DNA of 64,000 bases from Candidatus Colicola equi (GCA_018066175.1 JAGHRV010000053.1:5592-69591), one strand, 5' to 3'. Shown: positions 21,333 through 37,992, numbered from the stretch's first letter. Translations and numbers: made by a program. The notes: generated from the letters alone by a model not told the origin.

Positions 21333-21806
21333 ATGAGACATAATAAGAAATTCAATCATCTTGGCCGTAAAGCAGCCCATCGTGGTGCTATGCTGTCCAA
21401 TATGGCTTGCTCGCTGATTATGCACAAGCGTATTTCGACAACGTTGGCTAAGGCAAAGGCTCTTCGTATTTACGTTGAACCTCTTCTGACTCGTGCAAAG
21501 GAGGACAATATGGCAAATCGCCGTCTTGTTTTCTCTGAGTTGAAGCAAAAAGAAGTTGTAACCGAGTTATTCCAAAACGTAGCAGAGAAGATTGCTAACC
21601 GTCCCGGAGGTTACTGCCGTATCCTTCGTACGGGCTTCCGTTTGGGTGATGCTGCAGAGATGTGTATCATCGAGCTCGTTGATTACAATGAGAATATGCT
21701 GAAGGAAAAGAAAGCCGCTAAGAAGACGACTCGTCGTGCAGGTGCAAAGAAAGCAGCCGCTGAGGTTGTAGAAGCAGCTCCCGCCGAAGAGGCTAAGGCT
21801 GAATAA
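21333..21806 (+). CDS. rplQ: 50S ribosomal protein bL17
   Basis: [17 protein letters not shown]...; last gene of the alpha operon. Confidence 0.96.
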
Positions 21807-22386: not shown

Positions 22387-22788
22387 TTAAACCTTTCGTA
22401 GTTTACGTATTCGTTGATAGGTTTTATTTAATTCGCTGGCATCGGTTAGCACTTTATTCAGCCGTGCCACGACAGCCTTGGGCGTGCGGTCAAAGTATTT
22501 AGCCAGAGAATTAACAGATTGTCCTGCTAGGAATTGTTCCATAAGGTAACTATCCTCGTGCTCCATCCATCGTGTATTATCTTTATACGTCACTCCGGCA
22601 GTCTCCATAATCGGCATATCTATACCAACTATCCGACGAACCCTCAAAAGAACTGCCATCGGTGTTCTTTCCATAGTTTCTGCCACTTCACGAATAGTCA
22701 TCTCCTGACGCATCAATTCCTTCAGCTGAGTCTCTTCCTCCACCGTCCAGAACTCATTATGTCTTAGTGGATGTTGATAATTCGTCAT
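22387..22788 (-). CDS. small protein with two Myb/SANT-like helix-turn-helix repeats (133 aa)
   Basis: Internal repeat seen in the translation: FWTVEEETQLKELMRQEMTIREVAETMERTPMAVLLRVRR and TRWMEHEDSYLMEQFLAGQSVNSLAKYFDRTPKAVVARLNK (pattern W-x2-E-x3-L...A...RTP-x-AV-x2-R). Confidence 0.6.
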   Translation of the reverse strand: MTNYQHPLRHNEFWTVEEETQLKELMRQEMTIREVAETMERTPMAVLLRVRRIVGIDMPIMETAGVTYKDNTRWMEHEDSYLMEQFLAGQSVNSLAKYFDRTPKAVVARLNKVLTDASELNKTYQRIRKLRKV

Positions 22789-22844: not shown

Positions 22845-23442
22845 TCATTGCTGTTCCTCGGGTTGTTCATCAAAGGGCAATATGGGTAAATTACCTTCGG
22901 CAGACAGTCTGTCAAAATCAGAAGCGAACAAGCGATCTTGGATAACGCGGTACTTCTCAAACTCTGTTTCGGCGAACTCTTTGGCTACCTCTGCTGTAAT
23001 GCGACCAGCATCATGCAGGATTTCATCGCCTCCGGCTTTGAGGATAATATCTATTCGCTTTGCCCAATCCTCCATAGTCATGGGGATATGACGCTGAGCC
23101 ATTCGCTCTGCCAATTCCAACATACCATTCACCAGTTGCGCAAGACTCTCCAATTCTTGCTCCTTGAGATAGTTCTTGGCGATTGACGGAGCGAGAGCCT
23201 TCCTGTTGAACTACCCCAATTTTCTGGGTAGTTCGATCTTGCATCAATTCTCCCTCTTGATAAATGTTCTGCAAATGAAAACCAATCGTCTTTGCTTCGA
23301 CCCCAAACAACTCGCCCATAGCGGCTTGAGTTGCCCAAATTGTCTCGTCGCAATACACAACCTGTACGCCTTTCTCTTGATTGGCTGCAAGGAAAGTCAA
23401 GAACTCAGCAGTACTATTTCGTATTTCAAGTATTTTTGCCAT
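22845..23442 (-). pseudogene. RhuM-family gene remnant (internal deletion plus frame change)
   Basis: ORF 23442..23023 starts like a RhuM N-terminus (...ETIWATQAAMGELFGVEAKTIGFHLQNIYQEGEL...VVQQEGSRSVNRQ), then turns into nonsense. The other frame (ORF 23153..22845, extendable upstream) reads ...IAKNYLKEQELESLAQLVNGMLELAERMAQRHIPMTMEDW...ILHDAGRITAEVAKEFAETEFEKYR. That is collinear with the C-terminal third of the intact RhuM gene at 29565-30584. The YNLD...VGYRV...RQWAT core is missing. Confidence 0.75.
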
Positions 23443-23510
23443 ATTACATTGGTTTTATCATTGATTCAATAAAATGGTTTATAACACTCGTAAAGATGCA
23501 TCATTATAAA

Positions 23511-26500
23511 TTACTGCATTTTTTTGACCGCCATGTCAATATAACGTGTATCCTCCTCGCTTAAATTATATTTGGCATAAAGTTGTTTATCTATCTCATC
23601 TATACTCCTGCTCCATTTAATATCAGATGATTCCGAAAAATCTTGGAGTGGAATGTTATTCCACACTTTTGGATTTTTATTACCTTGAGTCACTTTTTTA
23701 GTAGCCAACATTAAACGAGCAAACCTTGTCTTTAGATACTTAAGTAAATTCTCGGCTTCTATCTGGGTGTTAAAATCTCCAATAGTTATAAAAGTCTCTG
23801 TCGCACCTTCATTTGGTTTTCCAACAAATGGATCAGCCAACGTCTCGCCTATGGATCCAGTGCCATTCGTACTAGCAACGAAAACTTTATATTTCTTATA
23901 ATTTGATGGCGGGACTAAATATTTCTCGTTAAAGAAATAGCTTATTCGTTGGTTCTCTGCCCTCCCATATATCAAAGCATACTGCGAACCATCATTAGGT
24001 ATTTGAGAGAACAACACCTTCCCGAACTTTGCAAAAGCTGGAGATGACAAATATCTTTTTGAACCCCCTGATACTTTCCTTTCTAGCGACGGATTCTCCT
24101 TAAAAAACAAGGGACTGAATTTGTATGAAGTATTAGAGTATACTATTTCGGATAAACTATGTTCTAATGGGAGGACCTTCTCTAATATTGACCTTATCTG
24201 GTTATTTTTTGCATAATTACCAATGGGGGGTACTTCCTCCTGTAAATTACGCATGCAGATAGCCACGCCTCCCTTAATGTCTACATTTTGGAAAAACACC
24301 TTTGAATTTTCATTGTATCTCACTACCTTCAAATGAGTGTCATTTAACATTCTCTGATTCCAAGTAGATGGGGTTTTACCAGCATTAAATAAAAATCTTC
24401 CGGGTGTAATAAGTGTGGCAATAGGAGAAAGCTCGAATGCTAAATCATAAAACAAATGATATACAGGCGGTTGTTCTGATCTGTTCTCTATATTTTGTTG
24501 ATACGGAGGATTTCCTACAACTGCTTTAAATTCAAAATTATTTGTTGCCATATTTTCTATTCCCCAATAGGAGTATTGTTTTAATTGTTCTACAAATGCT
24601 GTTTTCTGTTCGTCATTTTTTAAGATTTCAATCAAGTCTCTTTCATGGTTGCATCTTGTTGCTATGCTTCGATAGCCTCTCAAAACCCGTTCAGTAATGC
24701 GTCTTGCCATCGGTGTCTTACATAGGACAAATAGTTGTTCGGATAGTATTTGGTTCCAAATTCCTAATTTCTGTTCTTCTGTAAGTTTCATTGGTTGTTC
24801 TGCGCATCGATATCGGAAAAGTGTATACGCTAACCACAAGGGATAAATACCTGATTTAGAATTTATTTCTAAAAGTTTAGAGTCCTTGGCAAAAATTTCT
24901 TTAGTTATGGGAACATTTTCGATTAAGATTGGGTCAGTCGTCTCCTTGGTGTAATTTGCGTCTTTAAAGAATGAATATCCACCAATAGTTTCGGTCATGT
25001 GTAGATTAACTACACGCCATGGTGTTAAGACTGTCTCCTTATCCGGATAGTGAAAGCGTTGTAAGATATGAGCCATTTTCATAACTCTTTCCTCAACTGG
25101 TAATTCGTCAGCATTATGAGTATCTTCTAGAAGCAATTGAGTAGAAGTTAAGAAATAGTCATTATTAAACAAATGCGATACTTCAAGAAACTTCTCTTGT
25201 GTAAACCCTTTAGGCATAAATTGCTCCCAATCTTCCCTGTCCATATCATGCACAAAGTTCACTAACGACCAATGCTCAGTAGAATCAATAGCACCGAATA
25301 AGAGCAATGGGAAACGTTTCGCGATAGATCCCATCAACTGACGATAGCGGCGTAAGGACTCTGCATAGTTATTACGTGGTTTTTTTGTGTTTTTCGGTTT
25401 GTTTGTTGTGTTAGATTTTTCTCCATCATTATCTCCTTCTTCTGAAGAGCCATCTTCACCAGTCATTCCTTGGTCGTTAACATTAATCTTACCCTCGTTA
25501 GACATTGCTTTGTTGTTAGCATTTCCAAATAACGATTCAATCCCCGTCAATCTTTCTAAATCTTCCTTGGACACTTCATCAAATCCCATGAATAAGCGAT
25601 GGCTATTAAAACCTTGACGATATATTTGGTCTGCTATGGCACGATGGACTTGCTTCATGAATGACAATGTATCAAAAGCTTTTGTCTGACTACCATCTAT
25701 AGCAATAATAGGGCAATAATGCATAAATTTTCCAATGTAACGTGCATGAGCATCGTCGTGATGTCCATTTTCTCTTTCCGTAGCTTCTTCTCCACTCTTA
25801 CCCTCGTTTAATTTCCTTGTTACATTCAAGAAATCCTCCACCACTGTAACAGTCCGGTCTGGAGCAAAATCAAAAGCATAGCATTCACGTTTAATGGTTC
25901 CATCCGTAGCCGGAGATTGTACTCGGAAAATGGTTTGCATATAAGAAGCAGCCTTTGTGCTATATGAACCTGCTAACATCAAAACCGCTGTCCACTCAGG
26001 AACCGTAACACCTGTGGTCAATCGACCGCAAGAGATAGTAATGGTCTTTTCATTTTCGGCAATAGCCTTCTTAACTTTCGTTAATGCAGCCTTTATTTCT
26101 GCAGCCTTCTTTTCAATATTTTCAAGTGTGTCATCACCAATATCCGTAGCGTCTACATCCTCCATCGCTAATGTGTGGCCATCACCTGCAACATTAACCA
26201 CCGCATAGTTGCGGAATATAGGATGATTATTTAACATTAAGGTAAGAGCAGCGGCCGCCTTAACGCCAGGAACAACCCAAAATGTATGCTCAAAATAATG
26301 GCGGAACACCTCATGGGCAAATGGATAATTACTCTCCGCATCATCCTTGCTTAGTAAATCTAAGAATAGGCGTACATCATCCTTATGTACAAAATCACCC
26401 ACAATGGCATCCAATGGCATTTCTTCACCATCTTCATCTATATCACCTTTCCAAACTCTAAAGAACTCCGTAAAGTTAAAATAATCATCTTCTGCATGCT

Positions 26501-27653
26501 TATAGTGTTCAAATGCAGACCCCAAACTATAGGTTAGCATATTAAGACGAGGGAGTCCTTCATAGGGATTTTTAACACCTGGATGTTTCTCATCCCATGT
26601 CTCTTTTGCTTCTTGTTCCCTTACATAATCCCACGTGTATATCTCTTGTCCCTCAAATTGATTAAGGATATTAAATGGGGTACCAGAGAGATATAGGAAT
26701 TTAGGCGATTTTTTATTTAACTGTTGAATAACCTTTTTACCTAATGTCGTTTGTGTCCCCTCATGAGCCTCATCCAAAATCACCAAATCCCACGGAGCAG
26801 AAAATATCTCTGCATTCTTATCAAATTTACCACCTGTCTCCTTCGAACCACGCAAATCCTGCATGGAAATGAAATAAATATAATGTTTGCCTGTTTTCTG
26901 CAGATCACGTTCAAGCGTTTTAAAGTCTTGTCCGAAACCACCTGGGGGAACAGACCCGTCATGTCTTGGTTTAGTTCCTCGCTGATAATTCTCAAACTTA
27001 ATTTTGTCAAAGTCTTCAAACCATCCATCTCTAACTGCAGGCCTATGTGTAAGAATGAGAGTGCGCTTACAATTCATACGACGAACTGTCTCCAACGCAC
27101 ATAGTGTCTTACCAAAACGCATTTTAGCATTCCACAACATTTTATTCCCATATTCAAAATGAATCAAAGTTCTGCGAACCGCATCGTCTTGCTCTTCGCG
27201 GAATTCAATTTCCTTTTCAGGTATAGAGTGCTTAGGTGCTTCTAATGACTGCCTTTCTTCTTTGACCGCTTTAATTGCATTTTGTGCAGTAGTTAAATCT
27301 ACAGGATACCATTCATCTGCGGTACTGGCATCAAATATATGTTTCTTGTAACCACTATTTTCCAGAACAGCATGGACATCGTGATCATCAAAATAACGAC
27401 CTTTCCCCTCTTCATTCTTGTAATAAGCCAACTCCGTGTACAAAAGGTCATACTTAAAGCCTCCTGTATTCAACTCTTGCTTAATACGAACTCGAGCCGC
27501 ATCAACCATCATAGGGTCATTGGGCTCTGGAATAAAATCTTCCGGAACGCTAACAGAGGCCTTCCCGATTTTTAGCAAGCCTTCATGATCTGGATAAGGT
27601 ACACTAAATATATAAATTAGCGTGTACTCTCTTGTTGCTTGTAGTACTGCCAT
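23511..27653 (-). CDS. 1380-aa fusion: GIY-YIG/T5orf172-like N-terminal domain + SF2 (ResIII/DEAH) helicase + gamma-type N6-adenine DNA methyltransferase module + TRD-like C-terminus
   Basis: N-terminal domain (aa 10-130): YIFSV..EGLLKIGKAS...HDVHAVL...DEWYPVDL. Helicase: Walker A AKMRFGKT (nt 27105-27113), DEAH LVILDEAHEG (nt 26763-26774), LSGTPF, TTGVTVPEW, QTIFRVQSP. Low-complexity linker at aa ~715-765. MTase motifs: ETVLTPWRVV (X), LLEINSKSGIYPL (I), AVVGNPPYQQ (IV, nt 24501-24512). The tail ends ...QLYAKYNLSEEDTRYIDMAVKKMQ. Confidence 0.8.
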   Translation of the reverse strand: MAVLQATREYTLIYIFSVPYPDHEGLLKIGKASVSVPEDFIPEPNDPMMVDAARVRIKQELNTGGFKYDLLYTELAYYKNEEGKGRYFDDHDVHAVLENSGYKKHIFDASTADEWYPVDLTTAQNAIKAVKEERQSLEAPKHSIPEKEIEFREEQDDAVRRTLIHFEYGNKMLWNAKMRFGKTLCALETVRRMNCKRTLILTHRPAVRDGWFEDFDKIKFENYQRGTKPRHDGSVPPGGFGQDFKTLERDLQKTGKHYIYFISMQDLRGSKETGGKFDKNAEIFSAPWDLVILDEAHEGTQTTLGKKVIQQLNKKSPKFLYLSGTPFNILNQFEGQEIYTWDYVREQEAKETWDEKHPGVKNPYEGLPRLNMLTYSLGSAFEHYKHAEDDYFNFTEFFRVWKGDIDEDGEEMPLDAIVGDFVHKDDVRLFLDLLSKDDAESNYPFAHEVFRHYFEHTFWVVPGVKAAAALTLMLNNHPIFRNYAVVNVAGDGHTLAMEDVDATDIGDDTLENIEKKAAEIKAALTKVKKAIAENEKTITISCGRLTTGVTVPEWTAVLMLAGSYSTKAASYMQTIFRVQSPATDGTIKRECYAFDFAPDRTVTVVEDFLNVTRKLNEGKSGEEATERENGHHDDAHARYIGKFMHYCPIIAIDGSQTKAFDTLSFMKQVHRAIADQIYRQGFNSHRLFMGFDEVSKEDLERLTGIESLFGNANNKAMSNEGKINVNDQGMTGEDGSSEEGDNDGEKSNTTNKPKNTKKPRNNYAESLRRYRQLMGSIAKRFPLLLFGAIDSTEHWSLVNFVHDMDREDWEQFMPKGFTQEKFLEVSHLFNNDYFLTSTQLLLEDTHNADELPVEERVMKMAHILQRFHYPDKETVLTPWRVVNLHMTETIGGYSFFKDANYTKETTDPILIENVPITKEIFAKDSKLLEINSKSGIYPLWLAYTLFRYRCAEQPMKLTEEQKLGIWNQILSEQLFVLCKTPMARRITERVLRGYRSIATRCNHERDLIEILKNDEQKTAFVEQLKQYSYWGIENMATNNFEFKAVVGNPPYQQNIENRSEQPPVYHLFYDLAFELSPIATLITPGRFLFNAGKTPSTWNQRMLNDTHLKVVRYNENSKVFFQNVDIKGGVAICMRNLQEEVPPIGNYAKNNQIRSILEKVLPLEHSLSEIVYSNTSYKFSPLFFKENPSLERKVSGGSKRYLSSPAFAKFGKVLFSQIPNDGSQYALIYGRAENQRISYFFNEKYLVPPSNYKKYKVFVASTNGTGSIGETLADPFVGKPNEGATETFITIGDFNTQIEAENLLKYLKTRFARLMLATKKVTQGNKNPKVWNNIPLQDFSESSDIKWSRSIDEIDKQLYAKYNLSEEDTRYIDMAVKKMQ

Positions 27654-27656
27654 ATC

Positions 27657-29180
27657 TTATTTTTTATTTACAAGTTCTTCAAAGGTTATTTTTCTAGATC
27701 CTCTTTGACGACCACTACTGGACCAAAGGGTTATCTGAGCTTTAATGCCAACTGCCGATGCTTTAGGTTCTTCTTCAAAGAAGTTCATTTCTAAAGTCTT
27801 CTCTTGTCGGCTATCGGAATATGGAACAATATATTTAATACCATCCATCTGCCATATATTCCATGAAATCCATTCTGCTACACATTGCAAACTTTGAGTA
27901 TTAAGTTCTATCGCAATATTGTGCTTTTTACAGAATGCACAGAAATACTCAATATATGTAATTAGTATATTTTCACGGGCAATCAAGAGACTATCTCCTT
28001 GCCATTCAAAACCATATATGTTACGTATAGCACGTTGTGCCCATTGTTTCCAATCCTCTACATTCTTCGCGTTTTCATTCACCACACGCAACTTTCTATC
28101 CAATAAGCCTACACGATGGTCTAAGTCTTCAATAAATACACCTGTGGTAGTATCATATCTGCTAACCAAATATGGAGCCTCTCCACAACAAATTTCAATA
28201 CGACGGTCCATAACATAATCCATCCATGTCTTACCTTTCGGGAAAGTAATAGGCTTGGTGGTATGCGTCCATGTATGGTCCTCGTTTTCATGGTTGAACA
28301 CGTCTTTGCAACCAAACCAAGCCTCATCTACTTGGTTATTTTGCGCATTACATACCCATGATGGAGTAAAGACCTCTGCCTTTTGTTTTACGCGATGCAA
28401 TTGTTCCTCTTTGCTCTTAAATGCACGGGGACGAATCACACGACCTTTATGCTTAGTAATTGCGACAATGGAAATTTCATCTGTTATATTATATCCTTCT
28501 CCTCTCTTACGATAATTATCGGTAGCCCAGATAATATGTCTATGTTTCTTTCCATTGGAGGAAGAATCCATCGTTTGGTCTCTAAGAATGGTCTCTAAGA
28601 TTAAGCCTTGCTCATCCAAAGAGAAGATATTGTCCTCAAGAATGTCAATGCTATTTATCAGTTGCTGAATTAAATTATTCCGCTGCTCATTCTTGATACT
28701 ATATATAAAGCGATTGTAAATTGTCTTTCCTGCAAATGATTTAGGGATGTAGTAGGGACCTATCAATTGTTGCAGTAATTTTTGAATCTCCAATTTTTCA
28801 AACTCTACAGGCTCCCCAAAAGAATAGCACAAATAATCATGGTTTGGAGATGGATATTCTAATTTAGCAATTTCATCTTTGGAATACGTCTTAATTTCCA
28901 AAACTGGATAAATAACATAAGCACTCTGTTTTCCACCATTGTGCAAGATAAGGAAGTCCACATTCTTATAATCTTTGCTTTGCGGATTAACCCCCGGTGA
29001 ACTACCTTTCCTTATACGTGCAGGATATATCTTATTCTTCTGAATCCATGCCTTCTTCTCTTTACGGCAGTAGCCGACCAAAAAGCGTTGGTCTGCATAA
29101 TCACGGAATAACCGAGGTACATTCTTCTCCTCTATTCCTTCAAATACAAGTGTTGGTGATATGTTCTTATCTTCTTTCAT
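27657..29180 (-). CDS. 507-aa protein: unknown N-terminal region + methyltransferase-like module lacking the catalytic [DNS]PP[YFW] motif
   Basis: aa 268-400: AEVFTPSWVCNAQNN (motif X-like), RRIEICCGEAPYLVSRYD (motif I-like; compare EPACAHGPFL of M.TaqI), IYGFEWQGDSLLIARENIL. No NPPY/DPPY/SPPY/NPPF anywhere in the 507 aa. The stop lies 3 nt before the start of the 1380-aa ORF. Confidence 0.7.
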   Translation of the reverse strand: MKEDKNISPTLVFEGIEEKNVPRLFRDYADQRFLVGYCRKEKKAWIQKNKIYPARIRKGSSPGVNPQSKDYKNVDFLILHNGGKQSAYVIYPVLEIKTYSKDEIAKLEYPSPNHDYLCYSFGEPVEFEKLEIQKLLQQLIGPYYIPKSFAGKTIYNRFIYSIKNEQRNNLIQQLINSIDILEDNIFSLDEQGLILETILRDQTMDSSSNGKKHRHIIWATDNYRKRGEGYNITDEISIVAITKHKGRVIRPRAFKSKEEQLHRVKQKAEVFTPSWVCNAQNNQVDEAWFGCKDVFNHENEDHTWTHTTKPITFPKGKTWMDYVMDRRIEICCGEAPYLVSRYDTTTGVFIEDLDHRVGLLDRKLRVVNENAKNVEDWKQWAQRAIRNIYGFEWQGDSLLIARENILITYIEYFCAFCKKHNIAIELNTQSLQCVAEWISWNIWQMDGIKYIVPYSDSRQEKTLEMNFFEEEPKASAVGIKAQITLWSSSGRQRGSRKITFEELVNKK

Positions 29181-29263
29181 TGTCCGTTTAAATATCCCCT
29201 TTGTGGACAGGGGTTGGGGTGCTTTTTTATTTCAGCATTTCGGACAAGAACACATATGGACAC

Positions 29264-29297
29264 AAAAAAAGCAGGTCCGAATTTCTCGTCCTGCTCC
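29264..29297 (-). terminator. rho-independent terminator (minus strand) between the RhuM gene and the 507-aa gene
   Basis: The minus strand reads ggagcaggacgagaaattcggacctgc followed by ttttttt; stem agcagg/cctgct with inner cga/tcg pairs. Confidence 0.6.
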
Positions 29298-29564
29298 TTT
29301 AGGCCGTAGGAAGTGCCCACTCAGTCAGAACGAGCAACTCAGACCTGCCGGTATATGACTATACGCAACTATACACCATACCCTATTTAGGATATAGTAA
29401 TAATATGCGAAATTATCACATACACGGCATCAGTTGTTGCTTCGTCTTGGACTGATGTTTTTGAATTTCCTACGTTCAAAGGAGCCAAGATTAAAGCGTC
29501 AAATGACGCCAATTATCAATATGTCCCCCTGTTTAACGTCAGTGGGTGACGAGGTTATATAGTT

Positions 29565-30584
29565 CTATTTACCTTCTTGTGTGGCTTGCTTTAATTGTTT
29601 CAAACTTTGGTAATAGTCTTCTTCTACAGGAGAAAGTGTACGAGTTTGATATTTGCGATATTCTTCTAAAACCTTAGTTTTTGCCTGCTCCATAGAGATG
29701 TGTCCGGCATCTTGCAAAACCTCTCCTCCTGAAAGACGAATCAAGCCATCTAATGCACTCACAAAATCTTGCATCATCATGGGGCGATGTTGTTCTGCCT
29801 GTATCTCTGCAATGTCAAAGTAAGCAGAGACCATGTTATTTAGCCGTTTAAGTTCAGGCTCATCCAAGTAATTCTTGGCAACTTGCACTTCTGCTTTAGT
29901 AGGCTGTGCTCCCCTAAATGATTGAAGTCCCATAAATGGTTTCTCAGCATCTGCACGTAGCACCATTAGTTCGCCAGCGGTGTGACCGTGTACGGCATAG
30001 TGGAACTTATTTTGTACAATTTTAAAGAATAGTTGGCTTTGTTCTGCCTTAGGATTGTAGTCAGCGCTAGTAGCGTATAAATCCAACACCTGGCGATACA
30101 TCACCTTTTCTGACGAACGTATATCGCGGATGCGATCAAGTAATTCTTTCCAATATGCACCACCTGCATTACCCTTTAATCGCTCATCATCCATCGTAAA
30201 TCCTTTGACAATGTACTCATGGATGCGCTTTGTCGCCCACTGACGGAATTGTGTACCACGAACAGACTTAACACGATAACCAACAGAGATAATAACATCT
30301 AGGTTATAATAAGCAACTTGATCATCTATAGCTCCACGATAACCACGATTTACGACTGTTGCAAATTTTGCAATCGTCGTCTCACGAGATAATTCCCCTT
30401 CCTCAAATATATTCTTCACATGCCGACTAATAACGGACTTATCACGTTGGAAAAGTGCTGCCATTTGGTCCAAAGAAAGCCAAACAGATTCATCCTTTAA
30501 CTGAACATTCAGTTTGGTAGAACCATCCTCTGTTTGATAGATGATTAGTTCTCCTTGAGATGTTATGTTAGTTTGTTCGTTCAT
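29565..30584 (-). CDS. RhuM-family protein (intact, 339 aa)
   Basis: ORF 29565..30632 trimmed to the ATG at 30584 (MNEQTNITSQGELIIYQTEDGSTKLNV...), because the -7 box lies inside the longer ORF. Typical RhuM blocks: VWLSLDQMAALFQRDKSVISRHVKNIFEEGEL, YYNLDVIISVGYRVKSVRGTQFRQWATKR. Confidence 0.85.
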   Translation of the reverse strand: MNEQTNITSQGELIIYQTEDGSTKLNVQLKDESVWLSLDQMAALFQRDKSVISRHVKNIFEEGELSRETTIAKFATVVNRGYRGAIDDQVAYYNLDVIISVGYRVKSVRGTQFRQWATKRIHEYIVKGFTMDDERLKGNAGGAYWKELLDRIRDIRSSEKVMYRQVLDLYATSADYNPKAEQSQLFFKIVQNKFHYAVHGHTAGELMVLRADAEKPFMGLQSFRGAQPTKAEVQVAKNYLDEPELKRLNNMVSAYFDIAEIQAEQHRPMMMQDFVSALDGLIRLSGGEVLQDAGHISMEQAKTKVLEEYRKYQTRTLSPVEEDYYQSLKQLKQATQEGK

Positions 30585-30601
30585 GCGCTCAATTTTGATT
30601 G

Positions 30602-30609
30602 CAAAATTA
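30602..30609 (-). promoter_or_regulatory. -7 box TAATTTTG (minus strand) of the RhuM gene
   Basis: The plus-strand caaaatta sits 18 nt upstream of the ATG at 30584. The -33-like CTTG is 20 nt further upstream. Confidence 0.65.
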
Positions 30610-30660
30610 CAAATAATTTTTGGAATATGCAAGAAAAAGTGAAATTTTAGATAAAAATAT

Positions 30661-30800
30661 TTTGGGGTAGGTAGGGCAAGTAGGGCAGGTATTTTCCATA
30701 AAGTATATATATTTATACACCCCTCACGCGTGAGCAGGCAGTATATATTTATAAAGGTTTACCAATTTTACCTGCCCTACTTACCCTACCTGCCCCAAAA
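30661..30800. repeat. 140-bp imperfect palindrome (30-nt arms, 28/30 complementary, nested 12-bp perfect palindrome ctcacgcgtgag at 30723-30734)
   Basis: Left arm ttggggtaggtagggcaagtagggcaggta; the right arm tacctgccctacttaccctacctgccccaa has the reverse complement ttggggcaggtagggtaagtagggcaggta. Confidence 0.9.
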
Positions 30801-30863
30801 AGCACCTAACGTTTAGTGTGTAACGTTTAGCGAGAATTAAATGCAAATAAAAGTGAGATTTAA

Positions 30864-30896
30864 ATAAAAATCTCCTATCTATTTTGATGTAGATAG
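30864..30896 (-). terminator. possible terminator of the membrane-protein gene (minus strand)
   Basis: 7-bp stem ctatcta/tagatag with an 8-nt loop; on the minus strand it is followed by gaga then ttttt. Confidence 0.4.
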
Positions 30897-30966
30897 ACGA
30901 TATATCATGGTTTATATATCCTGCGGTAATTAAGAAATCCTTGACAACCACATAACGTAGGAATTA

Positions 30967-31575
30967 TCAATTTTCTAATTGGCGGGGAGCGTTGCTCAGT
31001 GACCAATAGAGTCCCACTAAGGCGATGTCCATGCTAAGGTCCTTAAAGAGCATAAAGCCAAAAGACTGCTGCAAGAAAGGTACCAGAGGAAGCAGGAAAA
31101 TCAAGAACAGAATAAAGGGGAAGCCTAAGATGGCATTGGTTAATGCCCACCACCGAGCATGAACAGCGGCAGGAATATGTATGAACATCATGATGAACAT
31201 GCAACTTAATTGGAAATAAGACCCCAAATAAATCAGTTTGAACCACCATGAACTGCCTACCCAATGCACATCGGGATCGCAGCCGGCATAACGCCAGCAG
31301 AAAAGATGCAAGAGAATCAATATCACGGAAGTAGCAATCACTATCCATAAAGTTTCCTTGATAACTCGCGCCTTCTCCTGCCAATTAACTAACAAATACG
31401 TGGAGTAAATCAATAATAAGGCATATAGGAAAATATCCATTGCGGACGATAATAACGCTAAACTATTAACCGGCAACATCCCCTCTGCATCGGGAATATG
31501 CAACAGAACACGGAATAAGACAACAATGCTCATCCAAAAAGCAAACTGACGAGACTGATATAAAAGGTTGTTCAT
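30967..31575 (-). CDS. hypothetical polytopic membrane protein (202 aa)
   Basis: The translation has about 6 hydrophobic segments. It is divergent from the TetR gene. No family recognised. Confidence 0.65.
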   Translation of the reverse strand: MNNLLYQSRQFAFWMSIVVLFRVLLHIPDAEGMLPVNSLALLSSAMDIFLYALLLIYSTYLLVNWQEKARVIKETLWIVIATSVILILLHLFCWRYAGCDPDVHWVGSSWWFKLIYLGSYFQLSCMFIMMFIHIPAAVHARWWALTNAILGFPFILFLIFLLPLVPFLQQSFGFMLFKDLSMDIALVGLYWSLSNAPRQLEN

Positions 31576-31612
31576 GTGGTATGAATTTTATTCAATATTT
31601 GAAATCAGGGTG

Positions 31613-31620
31613 CAAAGATA
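31613..31620 (-). promoter_or_regulatory. -7 box TATCTTTG (minus strand) of the membrane-protein gene
   Basis: Plus-strand caaagata, 38 nt upstream of the ATG at 31575. Confidence 0.55.
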
Positions 31621-31724
31621 CTGAATTTTTATGAATTACACAAATAAAAACACCTTAAAAATGATTAAATATTCATTAAAAACGTCACGTGGAAACTGAA
31701 AGAGTGAAAAAAGTTTCCAAAAAA

Positions 31725-31756
31725 TTTGTTTATATGAAAAAAAAGTTGTAATTTTG
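31725..31756 (+). promoter_or_regulatory. promoter of the TetR/efflux operon (-33 TTTG 31725-31728, -7 TAATTTTG 31749-31756)
   Basis: TTTG-N20-TAATTTTG. The 30-nt core 31737-31766 is identical to the rpsL promoter core at 3527-3556. Confidence 0.7.
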
Positions 31757-31784
31757 CACGCTTTTTTGCGAGAAAGGGTATTAT

Positions 31785-32420
31785 ATGTCGGAAAATCAGA
31801 AGGAAAATATCATTCGTGTAGCCAGAGAAAAGATTGGTGTAGCGGGACTTAGATCGGTCTCGATAGATGATATATGCCGTGAGTTAGGCATGTCGAAAAA
31901 GACTTTCTATGTATATTTCAAGACCAAGGATGAGTTGTTAGATGCTTTGTTGCGTCTGCATGAAGCGTCGATTCAAGAGAGTATAGCCGCCAAGACCAAA
32001 GGCAAGTCGTTGCTGACGATAGTGACCAATTATCAGTCGTTGCTGCGCAATATAAATGATGTGCGCCAAGTTCCGGTTGTGCTGTATGACCTGAAGAAAT
32101 ACTATCCGCAGCAATTGACTGCTCACTTGCAGCGATTGAGACTGATTAACCAAGAGATTACGGCACGATTTTTGCACCAAGGCGTAGAGGAGGGGCTTAT
32201 TCGTGAGCACTTAGATGTGGATGCCACTGCTCGTGTGTTGGCATCAATGCACCAAATTATGATAGATAAACTATCCGAGGCACAGAATCATCCTACTATT
32301 TTATCGGACACTAAGTTGGCAATGGATATCTTCTTCCGCGGATTATTGAGCGATGCCGGATTGGAACAGATAAAGAACTTAATAAACAAGAACGGTAAAA
32401 CAGATACAAGAATTAAATAA
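31785..32420 (+). CDS. TetR/AcrR-family transcriptional regulator
   Basis: N-terminal HTH: IIRVAREKIGVAGLRSVSIDDICRELGMSKKTFYVYFKTKDELL. Confidence 0.88.
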   Translation: MSENQKENIIRVAREKIGVAGLRSVSIDDICRELGMSKKTFYVYFKTKDELLDALLRLHEASIQESIAAKTKGKSLLTIVTNYQSLLRNINDVRQVPVVLYDLKKYYPQQLTAHLQRLRLINQEITARFLHQGVEEGLIREHLDVDATARVLASMHQIMIDKLSEAQNHPTILSDTKLAMDIFFRGLLSDAGLEQIKNLINKNGKTDTRIK

Positions 32421-32423
32421 GAT

Positions 32424-33782
32424 ATGAAAAAGATTGTTTTGATGATGGTAGTGGGTTTATCCCTACCACTTATGTCGCAGCAGCCGTTGATGACGGACTC
32501 GTTGCGAATGATGTTGGATGCTGTATCGGAGCAGCAGTACACATCTCAATTATCCCTCTCTTTACAGGAGGCTCAGGAGTATGCGGTGCAACAGAACCGC
32601 ACCTTACAGAATGCTTCTATTGATGCCAAGCGTGCGCATGCTCAACGCTGGCAGACGATTGCTGCTATGTTGCCCCAGTTGGATGGTAGTATAGGTAAGA
32701 CGGTGATGTATGATGATGAGTTTAACGAGAAGAAAATCTCGTTGGATCCCTCTCAGCCCCCTATGTCGATGTCGCCTTGGACGTATGGTTTGACGGCATC
32801 TATCGGACTGAATGGTCAGGCCATAGTAGGTGCGCTGCTCAATAATCTGGCGATTAAGATGCAGGATATCACGTATCAGCAGTCGGAGTCCGACTTGCGT
32901 GCTAATGTGGTGGAGAGCTACGTGGCTGTGCTAGTGATGGAAGATGTCGTGGCATTGATGGACAGCAGTTTGGCTAATATGGAGAAATTAGCGGAGCAGA
33001 CCGACCGCATGGCTGCCGTAGGTGCTATTGAGTCCACGCAGGCCGACCAGTTACGCGTGCGCGTTAATCAATTAAGGAATACCGCCATGCAGAATAAACG
33101 CAGTACGGTATTGGCCTATAATGCCCTGCGTGTGCTGCTGAATGTAGATGCACAAACGGAATTGGTGCTGACCAATCAGTTGCATGATGTCATCTCGCCG
33201 GAGAGTGCATTAAGCGTGCTATTTGAAGGATTCGATATACATAATAATTTCAATTATCAGTTATTAGAGAAGAATGTAGATTTGGCTAAACTTAATCTGC
33301 ACATGGCGGGTTGGGCTTACGGACCAACAGTGTCTGCCTACTACCAATATAGTTATCGCGACTATGGTAAGGATGGCGGTTTCACGATGATGAACTCGCC
33401 TCATACCGTGGGCTTTACGTTAACGATGCCGTTATGGTCCAGTGGCGTTCGCGCAGCCGGAGTGCATGATAAACGATTGGCACTTCAACAGGCTAAGAAC
33501 ACCTTCTCGGAGATGTCAGAGAACTTAAATATCCAGTATCAACAACTGCGTTATAACCTGACGAATGCTTACGAGACGTATGCCACCGAGAATGAGAATA
33601 TCAGCGTGGCTAAACGTGTGTTCCAGAACGTGAGCAATAAGTATAACTGGGGTGCAGCCTCGGCCATTGAGTTGACCAATGCATCCAATGATTTGATTAC
33701 GGCTCAGTCCTCTTACGTGCAGGCTGTGCTGGAATTGGTGAATGCAGAAGTAGAGTTGAATAAATTTTTAAACAATAAATAA
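32424..33782 (+). CDS. TolC-family outer-membrane efflux protein
   Basis: 452 aa with a signal peptide and two-repeat OEP-like sequence; first gene of the efflux operon, as is usual in Bacteroidetes. Confidence 0.85.
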   Translation: MKKIVLMMVVGLSLPLMSQQPLMTDSLRMMLDAVSEQQYTSQLSLSLQEAQEYAVQQNRTLQNASIDAKRAHAQRWQTIAAMLPQLDGSIGKTVMYDDEFNEKKISLDPSQPPMSMSPWTYGLTASIGLNGQAIVGALLNNLAIKMQDITYQQSESDLRANVVESYVAVLVMEDVVALMDSSLANMEKLAEQTDRMAAVGAIESTQADQLRVRVNQLRNTAMQNKRSTVLAYNALRVLLNVDAQTELVLTNQLHDVISPESALSVLFEGFDIHNNFNYQLLEKNVDLAKLNLHMAGWAYGPTVSAYYQYSYRDYGKDGGFTMMNSPHTVGFTLTMPLWSSGVRAAGVHDKRLALQQAKNTFSEMSENLNIQYQQLRYNLTNAYETYATENENISVAKRVFQNVSNKYNWGAASAIELTNASNDLITAQSSYVQAVLELVNAEVELNKFLNNK

Positions 33783-33783
33783 T

Positions 33784-34809
33784 ATGACAAACAAAACTTT
33801 TTATTTGGTAGCCGCAACCATGGTATTAGTCGCATGCGGCAAAGAAGCTACCGTTCAGGAGCAGGAAAAAGTAGAGATTGTGAAGACGATGACCTTGCAA
33901 CCTCGCCGTGTACAACGTCAATTGTCTATTTCGACCAATCTGCAGGGATATGAGACGGTGCAAGTTGCTCCGAGTGTACAAGGCCGAATTGAACATATCT
34001 ACGTAGAGGTAGGTGACGAAATCAACCGCGGTGATTCGTTGGTTAGAATGGATCAGACCCAATACCGTACTGCTCAGTTGACGATGGCTAACTTAGAGAC
34101 CGAGATGACCCGCATGAATGCTTTGATTGAAACAGGTTCGGTTAGTCAACAGGCCTACGACCAGGCTAAGTTAGGTTATGATCAAACCAAGGAGAACTTG
34201 GCCTTCCTCAAGAAGAACACCTACTATCGCGCTCCGTTCAAGGGTGTGGTAGCTGCCAAGAACAACGAGGATGGTGAGTTATACGGCGGTGCTCCTATCC
34301 TGTCTATCACGCAGGTGGATCGTCTCAAGGCTTTGATTGCTATTCCTGAGAGTTATATCCCATTGATTAAGGAAGGTAAGAAACTGACGTTGGAAAGTGC
34401 TATCTATCCCAATGAGGTCTTCCCGGCTTTCATTGAGATTGTTTATCCGACGGTAGATGCTGCTACGCATACTTTCCAATGCAAGGTGCAAATCCCCAAT
34501 GGCAAGCGTCTATTGCGTCCGGGTATGTACGTAACGACTACCGTGCCACTGAATGAAGAAGATGTGATATGTGTTCCTTATCAATCCGTCGAGAAACTGG
34601 TGGGAGCAAATGACCGCTATGTGTTCCTCAATAATAACGGCGTAGCACAGCGTGTGGCTGTTGAATTAGGACAGCGCATAGGCGAGGATGTAGAGATTAT
34701 TGCACCGGAGATTGTGCCTGGTGCAGAATATGTATATGTAGGACAACACCGTCTGGTAGATGGCGTTAAACTGCAAACAACCGATTCAATAAATGAAAAT
34801 GCTAACTAA
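33784..34809 (+). CDS. efflux RND periplasmic adaptor (membrane fusion protein), lipoprotein
   Basis: Lipobox ...MVLVACGKE; HlyD/AcrA-like blocks (GRIEHIYVEVGDEINRGDSLVRMD...); 1-nt spacing to neighbours. Confidence 0.88.
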   Translation: MTNKTFYLVAATMVLVACGKEATVQEQEKVEIVKTMTLQPRRVQRQLSISTNLQGYETVQVAPSVQGRIEHIYVEVGDEINRGDSLVRMDQTQYRTAQLTMANLETEMTRMNALIETGSVSQQAYDQAKLGYDQTKENLAFLKKNTYYRAPFKGVVAAKNNEDGELYGGAPILSITQVDRLKALIAIPESYIPLIKEGKKLTLESAIYPNEVFPAFIEIVYPTVDAATHTFQCKVQIPNGKRLLRPGMYVTTTVPLNEEDVICVPYQSVEKLVGANDRYVFLNNNGVAQRVAVELGQRIGEDVEIIAPEIVPGAEYVYVGQHRLVDGVKLQTTDSINENAN

Positions 34810-34812
34810 ACT

Positions 34813-37800
34813 ATGAGTATTTACAGAACTTCAATACAAAACCCGGTAACTACTGCCCTTATCTTTGTGGCAGTTATTATCATTGGTTTATTCAGCTTTA
34901 CGCAGCTGCCTATTGACCAATTCCCGGAGATGGATCCTCCATATATCACGGTGATGACCACTTATCCGGGTGCTTCGGCCTCGGAAATGGAGACAAACGT
35001 GACCAAGGTGATGGAGAATGCTCTCAACTCCACGGACCATTTGAAACACTTGACCAGTAAGTCCAAGGATAATATCTCGATGGTGACTCTTGAGATGGAG
35101 TGGGGCAGTAATATGGATGAAATCACGAACGATGTGCGGTCGTATGTGGATATGGTGAAGGATAACCTGCCGGATAACTGCGGTACTCCGGTTATCTTCA
35201 AACTCTCTACATCGTCTATGCCTATCGCCATGTATGCCATTACGGCAGACGAGTCGTATGCCGGTTTGGATAAATTGCTCAACGATGAGATTGTTCCTCA
35301 GTTGAACCATATTGATGGTATTGGTAATATATCGTTATCCGGTTCGCCGGACCGCTATGTATATGTCAACCTGGACCAGCAGAAATTGGATGCATACGGA
35401 TTGACTTTGGAGCAGGTGGGTTCGGTGGTTTCGGCTAATAACCTCAACCTTTCTTCCGGTACCGTTAAGATGGTGAAGGAACAATACCAGATGCAGGTTC
35501 GTTCCGAGTATATTGAGTCCAGCGAGATAGAGAACCTGATGGTGACTATGTTACCTACCGGTCAGCAGGTCTTTGTGCGCGACATCGCCACCGTCAAGGA
35601 TACCATCAAGGACTTGTCCTTGGATGAAAAAGCCAACGGCCGTGAGGCCGTGCGTTTGGTGATTGCCAAACAAACCGGAGCTAATACCGTGGCCGTTTGT
35701 CAGGGTGTGAAGAAAGAGTTGGAACGCATTCAGAAACAGATTCCTTCGGATATCAAGATTGAGAAGATCTATGAATCCAGTGAGAATATCCAGAACTCCA
35801 TCAATTCCTTGGAAGAGTCGGTGCTCTATGCCTTGCTGTTCGTTGTATTAGTGGTGCTGTTCTTCTTAGGCAAATGGCGTGCGACCATCATTATTGGTAT
35901 CACTATTCCTATTGCTTTGATTACCGCTTTCGCGTACCTTAAATTAGTGGATTCATCCATCAATATCATTTCGCTTTGCTCACTTACGATTGCTATTGGT
36001 ATGGTAGTGGACGATGCGATTGTGGTATTGGAGAACATCACTAAGCACGTGGAACGCGGCGAACACCCTCGTGAGGCTTCTATTTATGCTACTAACGAGG
36101 TGTGGATTAGTGTTATTGCAACAACATTAGTGCTGGTCGTGGTATTCGTGCCGCTAACCATGGTAGGAGGTATGGCCGGTATTATGTTTCATGAATTAGG
36201 ATGGATTGTGACGATCGTATGTTGTACTTCTACATTAGTAGCCATTACGTTAACACCTATGTTGTGCTCCAAGATGCTTAAGCCACGTCGAGTGCATGTA
36301 GATGAGAACGGTGACCTGATTGATGACGATGCCAATGCCAATACGTGGTATGATCGTACGGTGGTTAAGTTCCTAGATAAAGTGGACGAGAAATATGCGC
36401 AGTCCTTGGGTTGGTGCCTTAAGCATAAGGTGGTTACCTTCACTGTTCTGTTCGCTTTCTTTGCTGTTTCGCTGCTGCCTATTATCACCGGTAAGGTGGG
36501 CTTTGACTTTATGCAGGAGCAGGATAACGGACGACTGAACGTAACGGTTAAGTTGCAGCGTGGTACACGTATTGAAGAGACGCTAAAGACGGCCGCTAAG
36601 TTGGAGGCTCGCTTCCGCGAATTAGTGCCGGAGATTGAGATGATCTCTACCTCTGCCGGTTCAAATGACGATGCATCTATTTCGGCGATGTTCTCTACCA
36701 CAGAGAATAACAAGATATCTATGACCGTTCGTACCAATAAGAAATGGGAGCGTGAGCGTTCTATCTTTGAGATTGCTGAGTTACTGCGTAAAGAGATGGC
36801 TACCTATCCTGAGATAACTGAGTACCAAGCAACGGCATCCAGTGGTATGGGTGGCGCTCAGTCCAACACAGTAGATGTAGAAATCTACGGTTATGACTTT
36901 GCAACCACGTCTCAGGTGGCAGAGAAAGTGCGTTATTTAGCTTCGCAACTGCCTGGCGCTCGTGACGTAACTATTTCCCGTGAAGATGACCGTCCTGAAA
37001 TTAAGATTACGGTGGATAAAGAGAAAGCCTCTCGCTTAGGTTTATCTTCTGCCACTATCTCTCAGTACCTGCGCTATCGTGTATATGGTATGCCTTGCGG
37101 CTACCTCAAGGAAGATGGTTCGGAGTACGATATCCTATGCCGACTTCAAGAGGAAGACCGCAACTCGATTGAGGATATTTTGGACCTGACGCTGCCAACG
37201 GCTACAGGCGGTCGTGTTAAACTGAGTGAAGTGGCTTCGATAGGTGAATATTGGGCTCCCCCTACGATTGAACGTAAAGCGCGTCAACGTATCGTTACTA
37301 TCAAGGTCTTCCCTTATAAGACCTCTCTGGGCGACTTGGCTAATATGATTGAGAAAGAAGTGATGTCGCAAATCGATTTGCCTACCGGATATAGTTACCG
37401 CCTTGCCGGTACGTTTGAAACCCAGGAAGAGACCTTTGGTAATATGGGTTTATTGGGCTTGCTGATTGTGATTCTGGTTTATATCGTGATGGCATCTCAG
37501 TTTGAGTCCTTCTCTAAACCGGGTATTATCATGTTCTCTATCCCATTTGCTATCTCCGGTGTGTTGATTGCGCTATGGTTAACAGGTCGCTCGCTGGATA
37601 TGATTGGTGCCTTGGGTCTGGTGCTGTTGGTAGGTATTGTGGTGAAGAACGGTATTGTGCTGGTGGACTATATCAACCTGATGCGTGAGCGTAAGATGCC
37701 ATTGGATGAGGCGATTATGGTTTCCGGCCGCAGTCGTATCCGTCCGGTCTTGATGACCGCCTTCACGACGGTCTTAGGTATGGTACCAATGGCAGTATCC

Positions 37801-37992
37801 AATGGTGAAGGTGCCGAGATGTGGCAACCGTTAGGTATCGTGGTAATCGGTGGTCTAACCGTTTCTACGTTCCTCACCCTGTATATTGTACCTATTCTCT
37901 ATGGTGCTATATCCAAAGAGGATGCGGACGAAAAACAACGCAAACTGCGTGAGAAATTTATCTTTATGGATATCAAGGTGAAGAAGAGTTGA
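34813..37992 (+). CDS. RND efflux transporter permease (AcrB/HAE1 family)
   Basis: 1059 aa, 12-TM architecture; blocks GMVVDDAIVVLENI and VGIVVKNGIVLVDY. Confidence 0.93.
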   Translation: MSIYRTSIQNPVTTALIFVAVIIIGLFSFTQLPIDQFPEMDPPYITVMTTYPGASASEMETNVTKVMENALNSTDHLKHLTSKSKDNISMVTLEMEWGSNMDEITNDVRSYVDMVKDNLPDNCGTPVIFKLSTSSMPIAMYAITADESYAGLDKLLNDEIVPQLNHIDGIGNISLSGSPDRYVYVNLDQQKLDAYGLTLEQVGSVVSANNLNLSSGTVKMVKEQYQMQVRSEYIESSEIENLMVTMLPTGQQVFVRDIATVKDTIKDLSLDEKANGREAVRLVIAKQTGANTVAVCQGVKKELERIQKQIPSDIKIEKIYESSENIQNSINSLEESVLYALLFVVLVVLFFLGKWRATIIIGITIPIALITAFAYLKLVDSSINIISLCSLTIAIGMVVDDAIVVLENITKHVERGEHPREASIYATNEVWISVIATTLVLVVVFVPLTMVGGMAGIMFHELGWIVTIVCCTSTLVAITLTPMLCSKMLKPRRVHVDENGDLIDDDANANTWYDRTVVKFLDKVDEKYAQSLGWCLKHKVVTFTVLFAFFAVSLLPIITGKVGFDFMQEQDNGRLNVTVKLQRGTRIEETLKTAAKLEARFRELVPEIEMISTSAGSNDDASISAMFSTTENNKISMTVRTNKKWERERSIFEIAELLRKEMATYPEITEYQATASSGMGGAQSNTVDVEIYGYDFATTSQVAEKVRYLASQLPGARDVTISREDDRPEIKITVDKEKASRLGLSSATISQYLRYRVYGMPCGYLKEDGSEYDILCRLQEEDRNSIEDILDLTLPTATGGRVKLSEVASIGEYWAPPTIERKARQRIVTIKVFPYKTSLGDLANMIEKEVMSQIDLPTGYSYRLAGTFETQEETFGNMGLLGLLIVILVYIVMASQFESFSKPGIIMFSIPFAISGVLIALWLTGRSLDMIGALGLVLLVGIVVKNGIVLVDYINLMRERKMPLDEAIMVSGRSRIRPVLMTAFTTVLGMVPMAVSNGEGAEMWQPLGIVVIGGLTVSTFLTLYIVPILYGAISKEDADEKQRKLREKFIFMDIKVKKS

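Follow-up and report, generated by a model that had tools for sequence, protein, structure and literature searches.

Type ISP restriction-modification enzymes unite in a single chain an Mrr nuclease, a translocase, a gamma-class methylase and a target-recognition domain (TRD); they translocate and cut between head-to-head sites (PMC3874165). The DnmA(YeeA)-YeeB-YeeC clusters, in turn, are conserved gene sets of defence islands that code for an MmeI-like methylase, a DEAD helicase and a T5orf172/GIY-YIG protein, and the deletion of a set of this type in Vibrio raised phage sensitivity (PMC2731913; PMC9973331). Nuclease-helicase-methylase single chains were mentioned in passing by Morgan 2009, as were relatives using GIY-YIG nucleases by Sisakova 2013. 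Here we describe a locus from a 64,000-nucleotide stretch of Candidatus Colicola equi (GCA_018066175.1 JAGHRV010000053.1:5592-69591; hereafter the window), in which a 1,380-residue fusion of a predicted T5orf172 nuclease, a superfamily 2 (SF2) helicase, an N6-adenine methylase and a TRD (23511..27653, minus strand) adjoins a gene for a 507-residue partner, a 'half-methyltransferase' (27657..29180, minus strand). We propose that the two form a horizontally mobile, ATP-dependent restriction-modification module whose large subunit is an analogue of the Type ISP enzymes, a reading to which we give a probability of roughly 60%. The family to which this module belongs is widespread and only generically annotated; in view of the above mentions from 2009 to 2013, neither the single-chain type nor its GIY-YIG relatives are unseen.

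The main protein is read from one long open reading frame that begins with an ATG codon and ends with a stop codon at 23511-23513. An initial annotation of this DNA had placed the frame correctly, omitting only that it lies on the minus strand, and its motif strings also fall at the residues claimed: YIFSV, EGLLKIGKAS, RVRIKQELNTGG, HDVHAVL and DEWYPVDL in the N-terminal region; GKT (181-183), DEAH (294-297), SGTP (323-326) and QTIFRVQSP (573-581) in the helicase; ETVLTPWRVV (873-882), LLEINSKSGIYPL (927-939) and AVVGNPPYQQ (1044-1053) in the methylase; and LYAKYNLSEEDTRYI (1358-1372) at the C-terminus, with an acidic-then-basic low-complexity stretch at ~715-765. Pfam recovers ResIII at residues 149-327 (E 4.8e-13) and Eco57I (PF07669) at residues 972-1120 (E 4.4e-20; 72.9 bits against a threshold of 25.3 bits), the PHROGs family phrog_16 'DNA helicase' covers residues 57-681, and PADLOC REase_MTase_IIG matches residues 918-1379 alone, corresponding to positions 891-1359 of its 1359. 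None of the six genes considered, the main and partner genes included, has an NCBIfam match. An identical protein (100%) is deposited at NCBI as 'MAG: Eco57I restriction-modification methylase domain-containing protein [Bacteroidales bacterium]', and the databases hold more than 8,000 relatives. Together, Pfam, structural modelling and conservation across 83 homologues from about 10 phyla, the sample behind the residue counts given below, sustain the domains and the order that had been proposed: a head of the T5orf172/GIY-YIG clan, an SF2 helicase, a gamma-class N6-adenine methylase and a variable TRD. Given the Pfam scores, the number of relatives and the invariance among the homologues, this motif and domain pattern is far above chance. 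The alignments referred to below comprise 50 non-redundant homologous N-termini (A1), 50 main-protein sequences (A2) and the partner family (A3 and A4). Mean pairwise identity is 0.41-0.67 per region, except for residues 1136-1290 (0.23) and a 15-residue connector between head and helicase (0.28).

The head (residues 1-135; 27249..27653, minus strand) is assigned from Pfam matches of homologues, an AlphaFold2 (AF2) model, Foldseek comparison of this model with the predicted viral structures of BFVD, and residue conservation. A profile check of the N-terminus, as the initial annotation had suggested, gave the window's own residues 1-150 a score of 16.4 bits against Pfam T5orf172 (PF10544; E 0.014), below the 20-bit threshold; hence, the assignment rests on the homologues, of whose 50 N-termini in A1 45 match T5orf172 (best E 4.2e-9) and 20 match MUG113, and on the confident model. 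The latter, built on A1, reaches a predicted local distance difference test score (pLDDT) of 92.2 and displays the strand-strand-helix-strand-helix-helix order expected for the GIY-YIG superfamily; its top BFVD matches are all named T5orf172 proteins (probability 0.99-1.0, template-modelling score 0.4-0.5). The model resembles T5orf172 proteins, though no nuclease in the PDB matches it significantly. Searches with the head profile against all PDB sequences returned no usable match, and PD-(D/E)xK families are absent from the Pfam results on the main protein, its head included. Seven head residues (Y14, K28, G30, R56, H94, E114 and W115) are kept in 79-82 of the 83 homologues. Among these, R56 (81/83) and E114 (82/83) form a putative catalytic pair, their roles being mapped by analogy with Gp88 of ICP1, a T5orf172 protein and origin-directed nuclease, inferred to be working, that retains the catalytic Arg and Glu (PMC8263062). 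Model and conservation identify the head as a T5orf172 domain that has kept a nuclease-type set of residues and would act as a nuclease.

The SF2 helicase/translocase follows at residues 146-605 (25839..27218, minus strand). Its motifs I (GKT) and II (DEAH), as well as Q573, F576 and R577 of motif VI, are invariant in 83/83 homologues, and motif III (SGTP) is invariant across A2; the helicase C-lobe and motif VI are identified by eye and conservation alone. Beyond it lies the low-complexity linker (residues 715-765; 25359..25511, minus strand), acidic and then basic and rich in N, K, E and G, which is found in all homologues at a length of 35-57 residues. The initial annotation had suggested that this linker is the seam of a fusion between once-separate helicase and methylase genes. 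This idea is backed by the gut Caudoviricetes phage NatCom_35866 (PV036449.1; L095 1646-6877), in which the same system is encoded by three consecutive genes: a 260-residue half-methylase-like protein (89.8% probability to the partner family), a 506-residue methylase/TRD protein and a 974-residue T5orf172-helicase. The alignment of the last of these with the A2 profile runs from position 14 to ~783, a point shortly beyond the linker, and the 506-residue protein is homologous to residues ~917-1380 of the main protein (hhalign 99.8%). It is this position of the seam, near the linker, with methylase homology resuming at residue ~917, that supports the idea, though it does not set the direction, fusion or fission. 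The occurrence of a defence-type module inside a phage genome is odd in its own right.

A helical region and a gamma-class N6-adenine methylase together occupy residues 766-1135 (24249..25358, minus strand), with motif X at 873-882, a variant motif I at 927-939 and NPPY at 1048-1051. The residues E873, T874, T877, W879, K933, G935, Y937, T980 and N1048-Y1051 are invariant in all 83 homologues; by visual mapping, K933 and T980 occupy positions where Gly and Asp/Glu, respectively, are usual. The departure of motif I from GxG had been taken for a TaqI-like feature; it is instead a family trait (K933) that recurs in the stand-alone methylase of NatCom_35866, where motif I has Lys for Gly (DPACKTG) and motif II has Thr for the acid (LYGIAIT). 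As that methylase carries the same variants, the notion that K933 and T980 mark a dead S-adenosylmethionine (SAM) pocket in the main protein was downgraded; instead, the main methylase probably represents an unusual subfamily whose fold is complete.

The target-recognition region (residues 1136-1380; 23514..24248, minus strand) consists of a hypervariable core at 1136-1290 and a conserved C-terminal helix region. As judged from the alignment, the low identity of the core looks like that of a TRD under diversifying pressure, and the TRD is the sole hypervariable domain of the main protein. No profile matches residues 1120-1380 at E<=10, and the label 'TaqI_C-like' given earlier to the C-terminus accordingly has no profile behind it. 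In a relative of the module outside the window, a segment of 2,103 bp is cleanly inverted between the versions of one locus sampled in two metagenomes (L089, 9964-12066, versus L090); the repeats at its ends are inverted, 28 bp long and perfect, they code for motif IV 'AIIGNPPYQ', and a tyrosine recombinase gene is found next to the segment. The inversion exchanges the whole post-NPPY half of the methylase, together with the TRD, with a silent cassette; as far as its sequence allows, this locus is a phase-variable specificity shufflon. Among ~85 loci the invertible TRD cassette is confined to this lineage, and the window holds no second C-half cassette, NPPY repeat or silent TRD cassette.

The initial annotation had portrayed the main protein as a self-contained, single-polypeptide system, and this we can no longer uphold: a half-methyltransferase gene adjoins the main gene in 75/75 fetched loci with sufficient flank (>=1.1 kb upstream), and in the window its stop codon lies 3 nt ahead of the main start codon. 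In 69 of these loci the partner is upstream on the same strand (within +-15 nt in 60), in two it is immediately downstream, and in four it is a shorter divergent version of the lactic-acid-bacteria type. In several Lactobacillaceae loci the half-methylase is encoded downstream and not upstream. The window partner matches PADLOC MTase_II PDLC03390 (E 1.8e-92), as do all 35 aligned partner homologues, and returned no Pfam, NCBIfam or PDB sequence match, the search of the PDB with the partner profile included. Its core (residues 178-505; 27666..28649, minus strand) bears motif X (AEVFTP), motif I (E329..CGEAPY), a II-like motif (GFE392..D396) and a III-like motif (N441..QMDG447), all of which are conserved in the invariant columns of A3 and A4, and neither alignment contains an NPPY or a variable region. 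As motifs X to III are kept and NPPY is absent, the partner corresponds to the N-terminal half of a methylase without its catalytic half. The short partner of the Lactococcus lactis plasmid pCV56A (230 residues; annotated 'N-6 DNA methylase') matches Pfam N6_Mtase at positions 20-105 of 311 alone, has canonical motifs X (HGEVFTPQW), I (FLEPAAGDGNFL) and II (YGIEF), and aligns to A4 at 98% probability. The AF2 model of the window partner has a pLDDT of 81.6, and in Foldseek its core finds weak PDB matches (PglX methylase, E 0.11; LlaGI, probability 0.11).

The window partner further has an extra ASCH/EVE/PUA-like N-terminal domain (residues ~30-140; 28761..29093, minus strand), with AF2 block-mean pLDDT values of ~65-96 across residues 31-140. 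Its top Foldseek match in the PDB is 2p5d (E 5.9e-3, probability 1.0), followed by ZmASCH, PH1033, YTH and the McrB N-domain; the ASCH/EVE/PUA-like fold family comprises readers of modified bases and of RNA. This extension is confined to a small sub-lineage of long partner forms (P0122-P0127), most partners being ~330 residues long and devoid of it.

Full-length relatives of the main protein are present in at least 594 species-representative genomes from the Bacteroidota, Bacillota, Spirochaetota, Verrucomicrobiota, Planctomycetota, Patescibacteria, Cloacimonadota, Synergistota and other phyla. A search for the same architecture among 1.84 billion cluster representatives, as the initial annotation had advised, returned 653 clusters (50% identity) at E<=1e-30, most of them 1,300-1,570 residues long and aligned from residue ~1-12. 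The family resides on conjugative and mobilisable plasmids, including those of Lactococcus and Enterococcus; the Lactococcus pan-plasmidome paper counts pCV56A among the plasmids whose Type II system appears complete (PMC6458302). Carriers in culture include Lactococcus lactis CV56 (pCV56A; WP_014570254.1 and WP_014570255.1), Levilactobacillus brevis ATCC 367 (plasmid NC_008499), Alistipes putredinis DSM 17216 and Parabacteroides massiliensis SN4. In lactic-acid-bacteria plasmid forms such as that of pCV56A (L087, 3518-4100), a DUF4145 domain is added ahead of the T5orf172 head, for a total of 1,452 residues. About a dozen clusters are 'headless' in that they begin with ResIII and possess no other Pfam nuclease. 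The partner accompanies headless variants as it does the split three-gene phage version. In one headless locus (P0300; L096, 164-8029), the partner is kept upstream, in a cluster with a helix-turn-helix (HTH) gene, an SLFN_AlbA_2/HATPase_c_4 protein and a weak-HNH protein; the last of these may be a replacement nuclease. Finally, P0170 and P0227 (L085 8001-10635) are stand-alone methylases of ~670 residues, composed of a partner-like N-half, a zinc-ribbon-like insert (Cys/His-rich, as seen by eye), an NPPY half and a C-domain, of which the NPPY half and the C-domain are homologous to residues 1039-1377 of the main protein. After P0227 comes a 214-residue gene that overlaps it and has no Pfam match, possibly its endonuclease; the arrangement resembles an ordinary Type II pair.

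Among described systems, LlaGI and LlaBIII, which are of Type ISP, provide the closest likeness, with which the main protein shares the order nuclease, SF2 translocase, gamma-class adenine methylase and TRD, along with carriage on plasmids of lactic-acid bacteria; one-strand methylation of an asymmetric site and ATP-driven long-range communication would be expected of both. However, the Type ISP head is of the Mrr/PD-(D/E)xK type and that of the main protein belongs to the T5orf172/GIY-YIG clan; the Type ISP enzymes are self-contained, whereas the main protein is accompanied by the half-methylase gene; and its motifs VI and I are non-canonical. Neither phmmer nor the 50-sequence profile, when run against all PDB sequences (5ffj of LlaGI among them), found anything at E<=1 save a chance-level SNF2 match. 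Hence, of the Type ISP-like logic claimed in the initial annotation, the domain order with a different nuclease stands, while membership does not, there being no detectable sequence homology and an extra partner gene: as compared by sequence, the main protein is an analogue and not a detectable member of Type ISP.

The DnmA-YeeB-YeeC sets similarly link an adenine methylase with TRD, an SF2 helicase and a T5orf172/GIY-YIG nuclease, though as separate genes and with an MmeI-family methylase, whereas here these are fused, the methylase is of the Eco57I family and a half-methylase is added; YeeB and YeeC were compared by description only, and no MmeI_* Pfam family matches the main protein at E<=0.01. 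The split phage version resembles the Mod and Res subunits of Type III systems, the motor matches Pfam ResIII and one-strand methylation of an asymmetric site is again to be expected; however, the PD-(D/E)xK nuclease of Res is C-terminal and Mod belongs to the beta class, in contrast to the N-terminal T5orf172 domain and the gamma-class, mostly fused methylase of this family. With the Type IIG/IIL enzymes (Eco57I, MmeI, BpuSI) the main protein shares a methylase-TRD part that matches REase_MTase_IIG and Eco57I, and, as for Eco57I, there is a second methylase-like gene next to it; yet Type IIG enzymes have a PD-ExK head and no helicase, and the second gene here is catalytically incomplete in lacking NPPY. 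A preprint on MANTIS/Gao_RL was considered as a description of the same system and rejected, as it concerns a different four-gene system. In the searchable literature no paper names T5orf172 together with Eco57I.

The sequence data establish the domains and their order, the retention of the catalytic residues, the hypervariability of the TRD, the strict linkage of the two genes and the mobility of the module, whereas adenine methylation, translocation, cleavage and what the partner does are proposals. Briefly, we advance the following mechanism for the module, by analogy with these systems. The TRD and the NPPY methylase domain would read a short asymmetric site, flip out the target adenine and N6-methylate it in host DNA. 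Where the DNA is unmodified, the SF2 motor would hydrolyse ATP and translocate, and the N-terminal T5orf172 (GIY-YIG-type) nuclease would then cut, probably upon collision or stalling. The small upstream protein, with its predicted SAM-binding motifs X to III and neither an NPPY half nor a TRD, would act as an accessory subunit. Across the 83 homologues, the catalytic-type residues of all three modules vary little or not at all, which argues for three active functions. TRD hypervariability and the recombinase-driven inversion of the TRD, both typical of specificity diversification, support restriction-modification, and the conserved DnmA-YeeB-YeeC-type sets, with the phage sensitivity of the Vibrio deletion, count in its favour.

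Several observations weigh against this reading. When compared with the PDB by Foldseek, the head model found nothing at E<=0.001 and no significant GIY-YIG nuclease, its best match of that kind being 7wme (rank 44, probability 0.25), which we take to be the GIY-YIG catalytic domain of At-HIGLE. Motif VI reads QTIFRVQ-S/T and is devoid of the second arginine, and motif I of the methylase is SK(S/T)G instead of the canonical FxGxG, with Lys in place of the first Gly. Comparison by hhalign of the partner family (A3) and of the canonical Lactococcus half-methylase with the main protein revealed no relation. As sequence similarity to LlaGI, LlaBIII or any other solved restriction-modification enzyme is undetectable, the ISP-like mechanism stands by analogy alone. 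The searchable literature contains no biochemical or genetic data on the family, and no anti-phage activity was seen for the DnmA-YeeB-YeeC cluster of B. subtilis (PMC9973331).

An alternative that we regard as unlikely, though deserving of consideration, is that of a split methylase, wherein the partner supplies the SAM-binding half (Rossmann strands 1-3) in trans to the NPPY half of the main protein; methylation and self-protection would then need both chains, and the large chain alone would only restrict or recognise. Several features invite this interpretation: (i) the partner has canonical motifs I and II (CGEAPY; EPAAGDGNFL in lactic-acid bacteria; GxE) and stops before motif IV; (ii) the N6_Mtase profile is matched in complementary parts, at 20-105 by the lactic-acid-bacteria partner and at 96-272 by the main-type protein; (iii) in P0170 and P0227, the NPPY half and the C-domain are naturally fused directly to a partner-like N-half; (iv) the main protein has K933 and T980 in motifs I and II, as mapped by eye. 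However, the last of these features is shared by the 506-residue stand-alone phage methylase and thus looks like a trait of a complete fold; the Eco57I profile covers residues 972-1120 of the main protein from its first position onward; and NatCom_35866 retains a separate half-methylase, making the partner an addition and not a replacement. Because the phage methylase looks complete and the phage keeps the half-methylase all the same, we favour an accessory, regulatory or assembly role over a split enzyme: going by its motifs and its linkage, the partner appears to be obligatory as an accessory subunit, and most likely serves the main protein as a SAM-binding regulator or in assembly. As a separate matter, the PADLOC MTase_II model PDLC03375, which starts at NPPY, was considered as evidence for naturally split pairs of N-half and C-half methylases and dropped, since silent invertible cassettes that start exactly at NPPY could explain such models.

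The persistence of a catalytically incomplete methylase half is a puzzle, and in our view the most interesting unexplained feature of the family. Speculatively, and with little confidence, one might picture the partner as a trans-acting SAM-binding module that completes or gates the main methylase, the two chains forming a switch between self-methylation and release of the motor-nuclease, with an ASCH/EVE-type modified-base reader tuning it in this lineage. If true, such a two-chain switch would represent a new control principle for restriction-modification, in a family spanning hundreds of species and dairy-starter plasmids.

Distinctly improbable, in our estimate, is that the module does not cleave DNA at all, being an epigenetic or BREX/DISARM-like helicase-methylase module with a merely DNA-binding T5orf172 domain, or a domesticated relic. 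T5orf172 proteins are, to be sure, widely annotated as 'DNA-binding' (as in the descriptions of the BFVD matches), the Foldseek comparison with the PDB gave no confirmation of a nuclease fold, PADLOC BrxHI matches weakly within the helicase part, and in B. subtilis the DnmA-YeeB-YeeC cluster is without a restriction or anti-phage phenotype, DnmA being an orphan regulator there (PMC9973331). Yet the set Y14, R56, H94 and E114, kept across phyla in 79-82 of the 83 homologues, would be needless for a mere binding domain; the hypervariable TRD and the invertible TRD cassette point to an arms race; headless relatives adjoin other nuclease genes such as HNH; and no further BREX or DISARM genes lie near the module in the window. 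Finally, a modification-dependent (Type IV-like) or modification-sensing system, in which modified bases would be recognised by the methylase-like domain and the partner's ASCH/EVE-like domain, and modified foreign DNA would come under attack by the motor-nuclease, is suggested by the relation of the window partner's ASCH/EVE/YTH-like fold to modified-base readers including McrB-N and VcaM4I, but we hold it to be highly improbable, as this domain is limited to the small sub-lineage, NPPY is invariant and the TRD diversification fits sequence-specific restriction-modification.

The setting of the locus is in keeping with the two-gene restriction-modification module. It lies in a low-GC islet (23000-32000; GC 0.36-0.42, against 0.43-0.47 in the flanks), bordered by the SecY-RpoA-L17 ribosomal operon (ending at 21806) on one side and a TetR/RND efflux operon (31785-37992) on the other. 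Upstream of the module is an intact rhuM gene (29565..30632, minus strand; Pfam Virulence_RhuM, E 9.4e-105; PADLOC PDC-S05), a defence-island neighbour of the system, and downstream is a second, decayed rhuM (22845-23442, minus strand) broken into two frames (N-part 23023-23442, C-part 22845-23153). The two were considered as a target-site duplication or repeat, which is ruled out by their identity of merely 29%. RhuM occurs near the module in ~9 other loci, and other loci of the family have AbiH or HNH neighbours. The islet with its rhuM genes between housekeeping operons, the plasmid carriage and the AbiH/HNH neighbours amount to a defence-island setting that supports the reading as a restriction-modification module. 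The islet also contains a gene for a 133-residue HTH/D5-like regulator (22387-22788) and a 202-residue open reading frame with no family match (30967-31575); neither a tRNA nor an integrase was found in the window.

In broader terms, ATP-dependent single-chain restriction enzymes are understood from just two near-identical Lactococcus proteins with an Mrr nuclease. The family described here presents the same layout built on an unrelated nuclease-type domain, T5orf172, and occurs commonly among Bacteroidales of the gut, Firmicutes, bacteria of the candidate phyla and dairy plasmids. It would offer a test of translocation-collision cleavage with a GIY-YIG-type, typically monomeric, nicking-style nuclease, and it may give a biochemical role to the poorly understood T5orf172 domain. 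Its TRDs may prove reprogrammable, and the modules themselves are likely to stand in the way of phage therapy, of attempts to manipulate gut Bacteroidales genetically and of phages attacking dairy starters.

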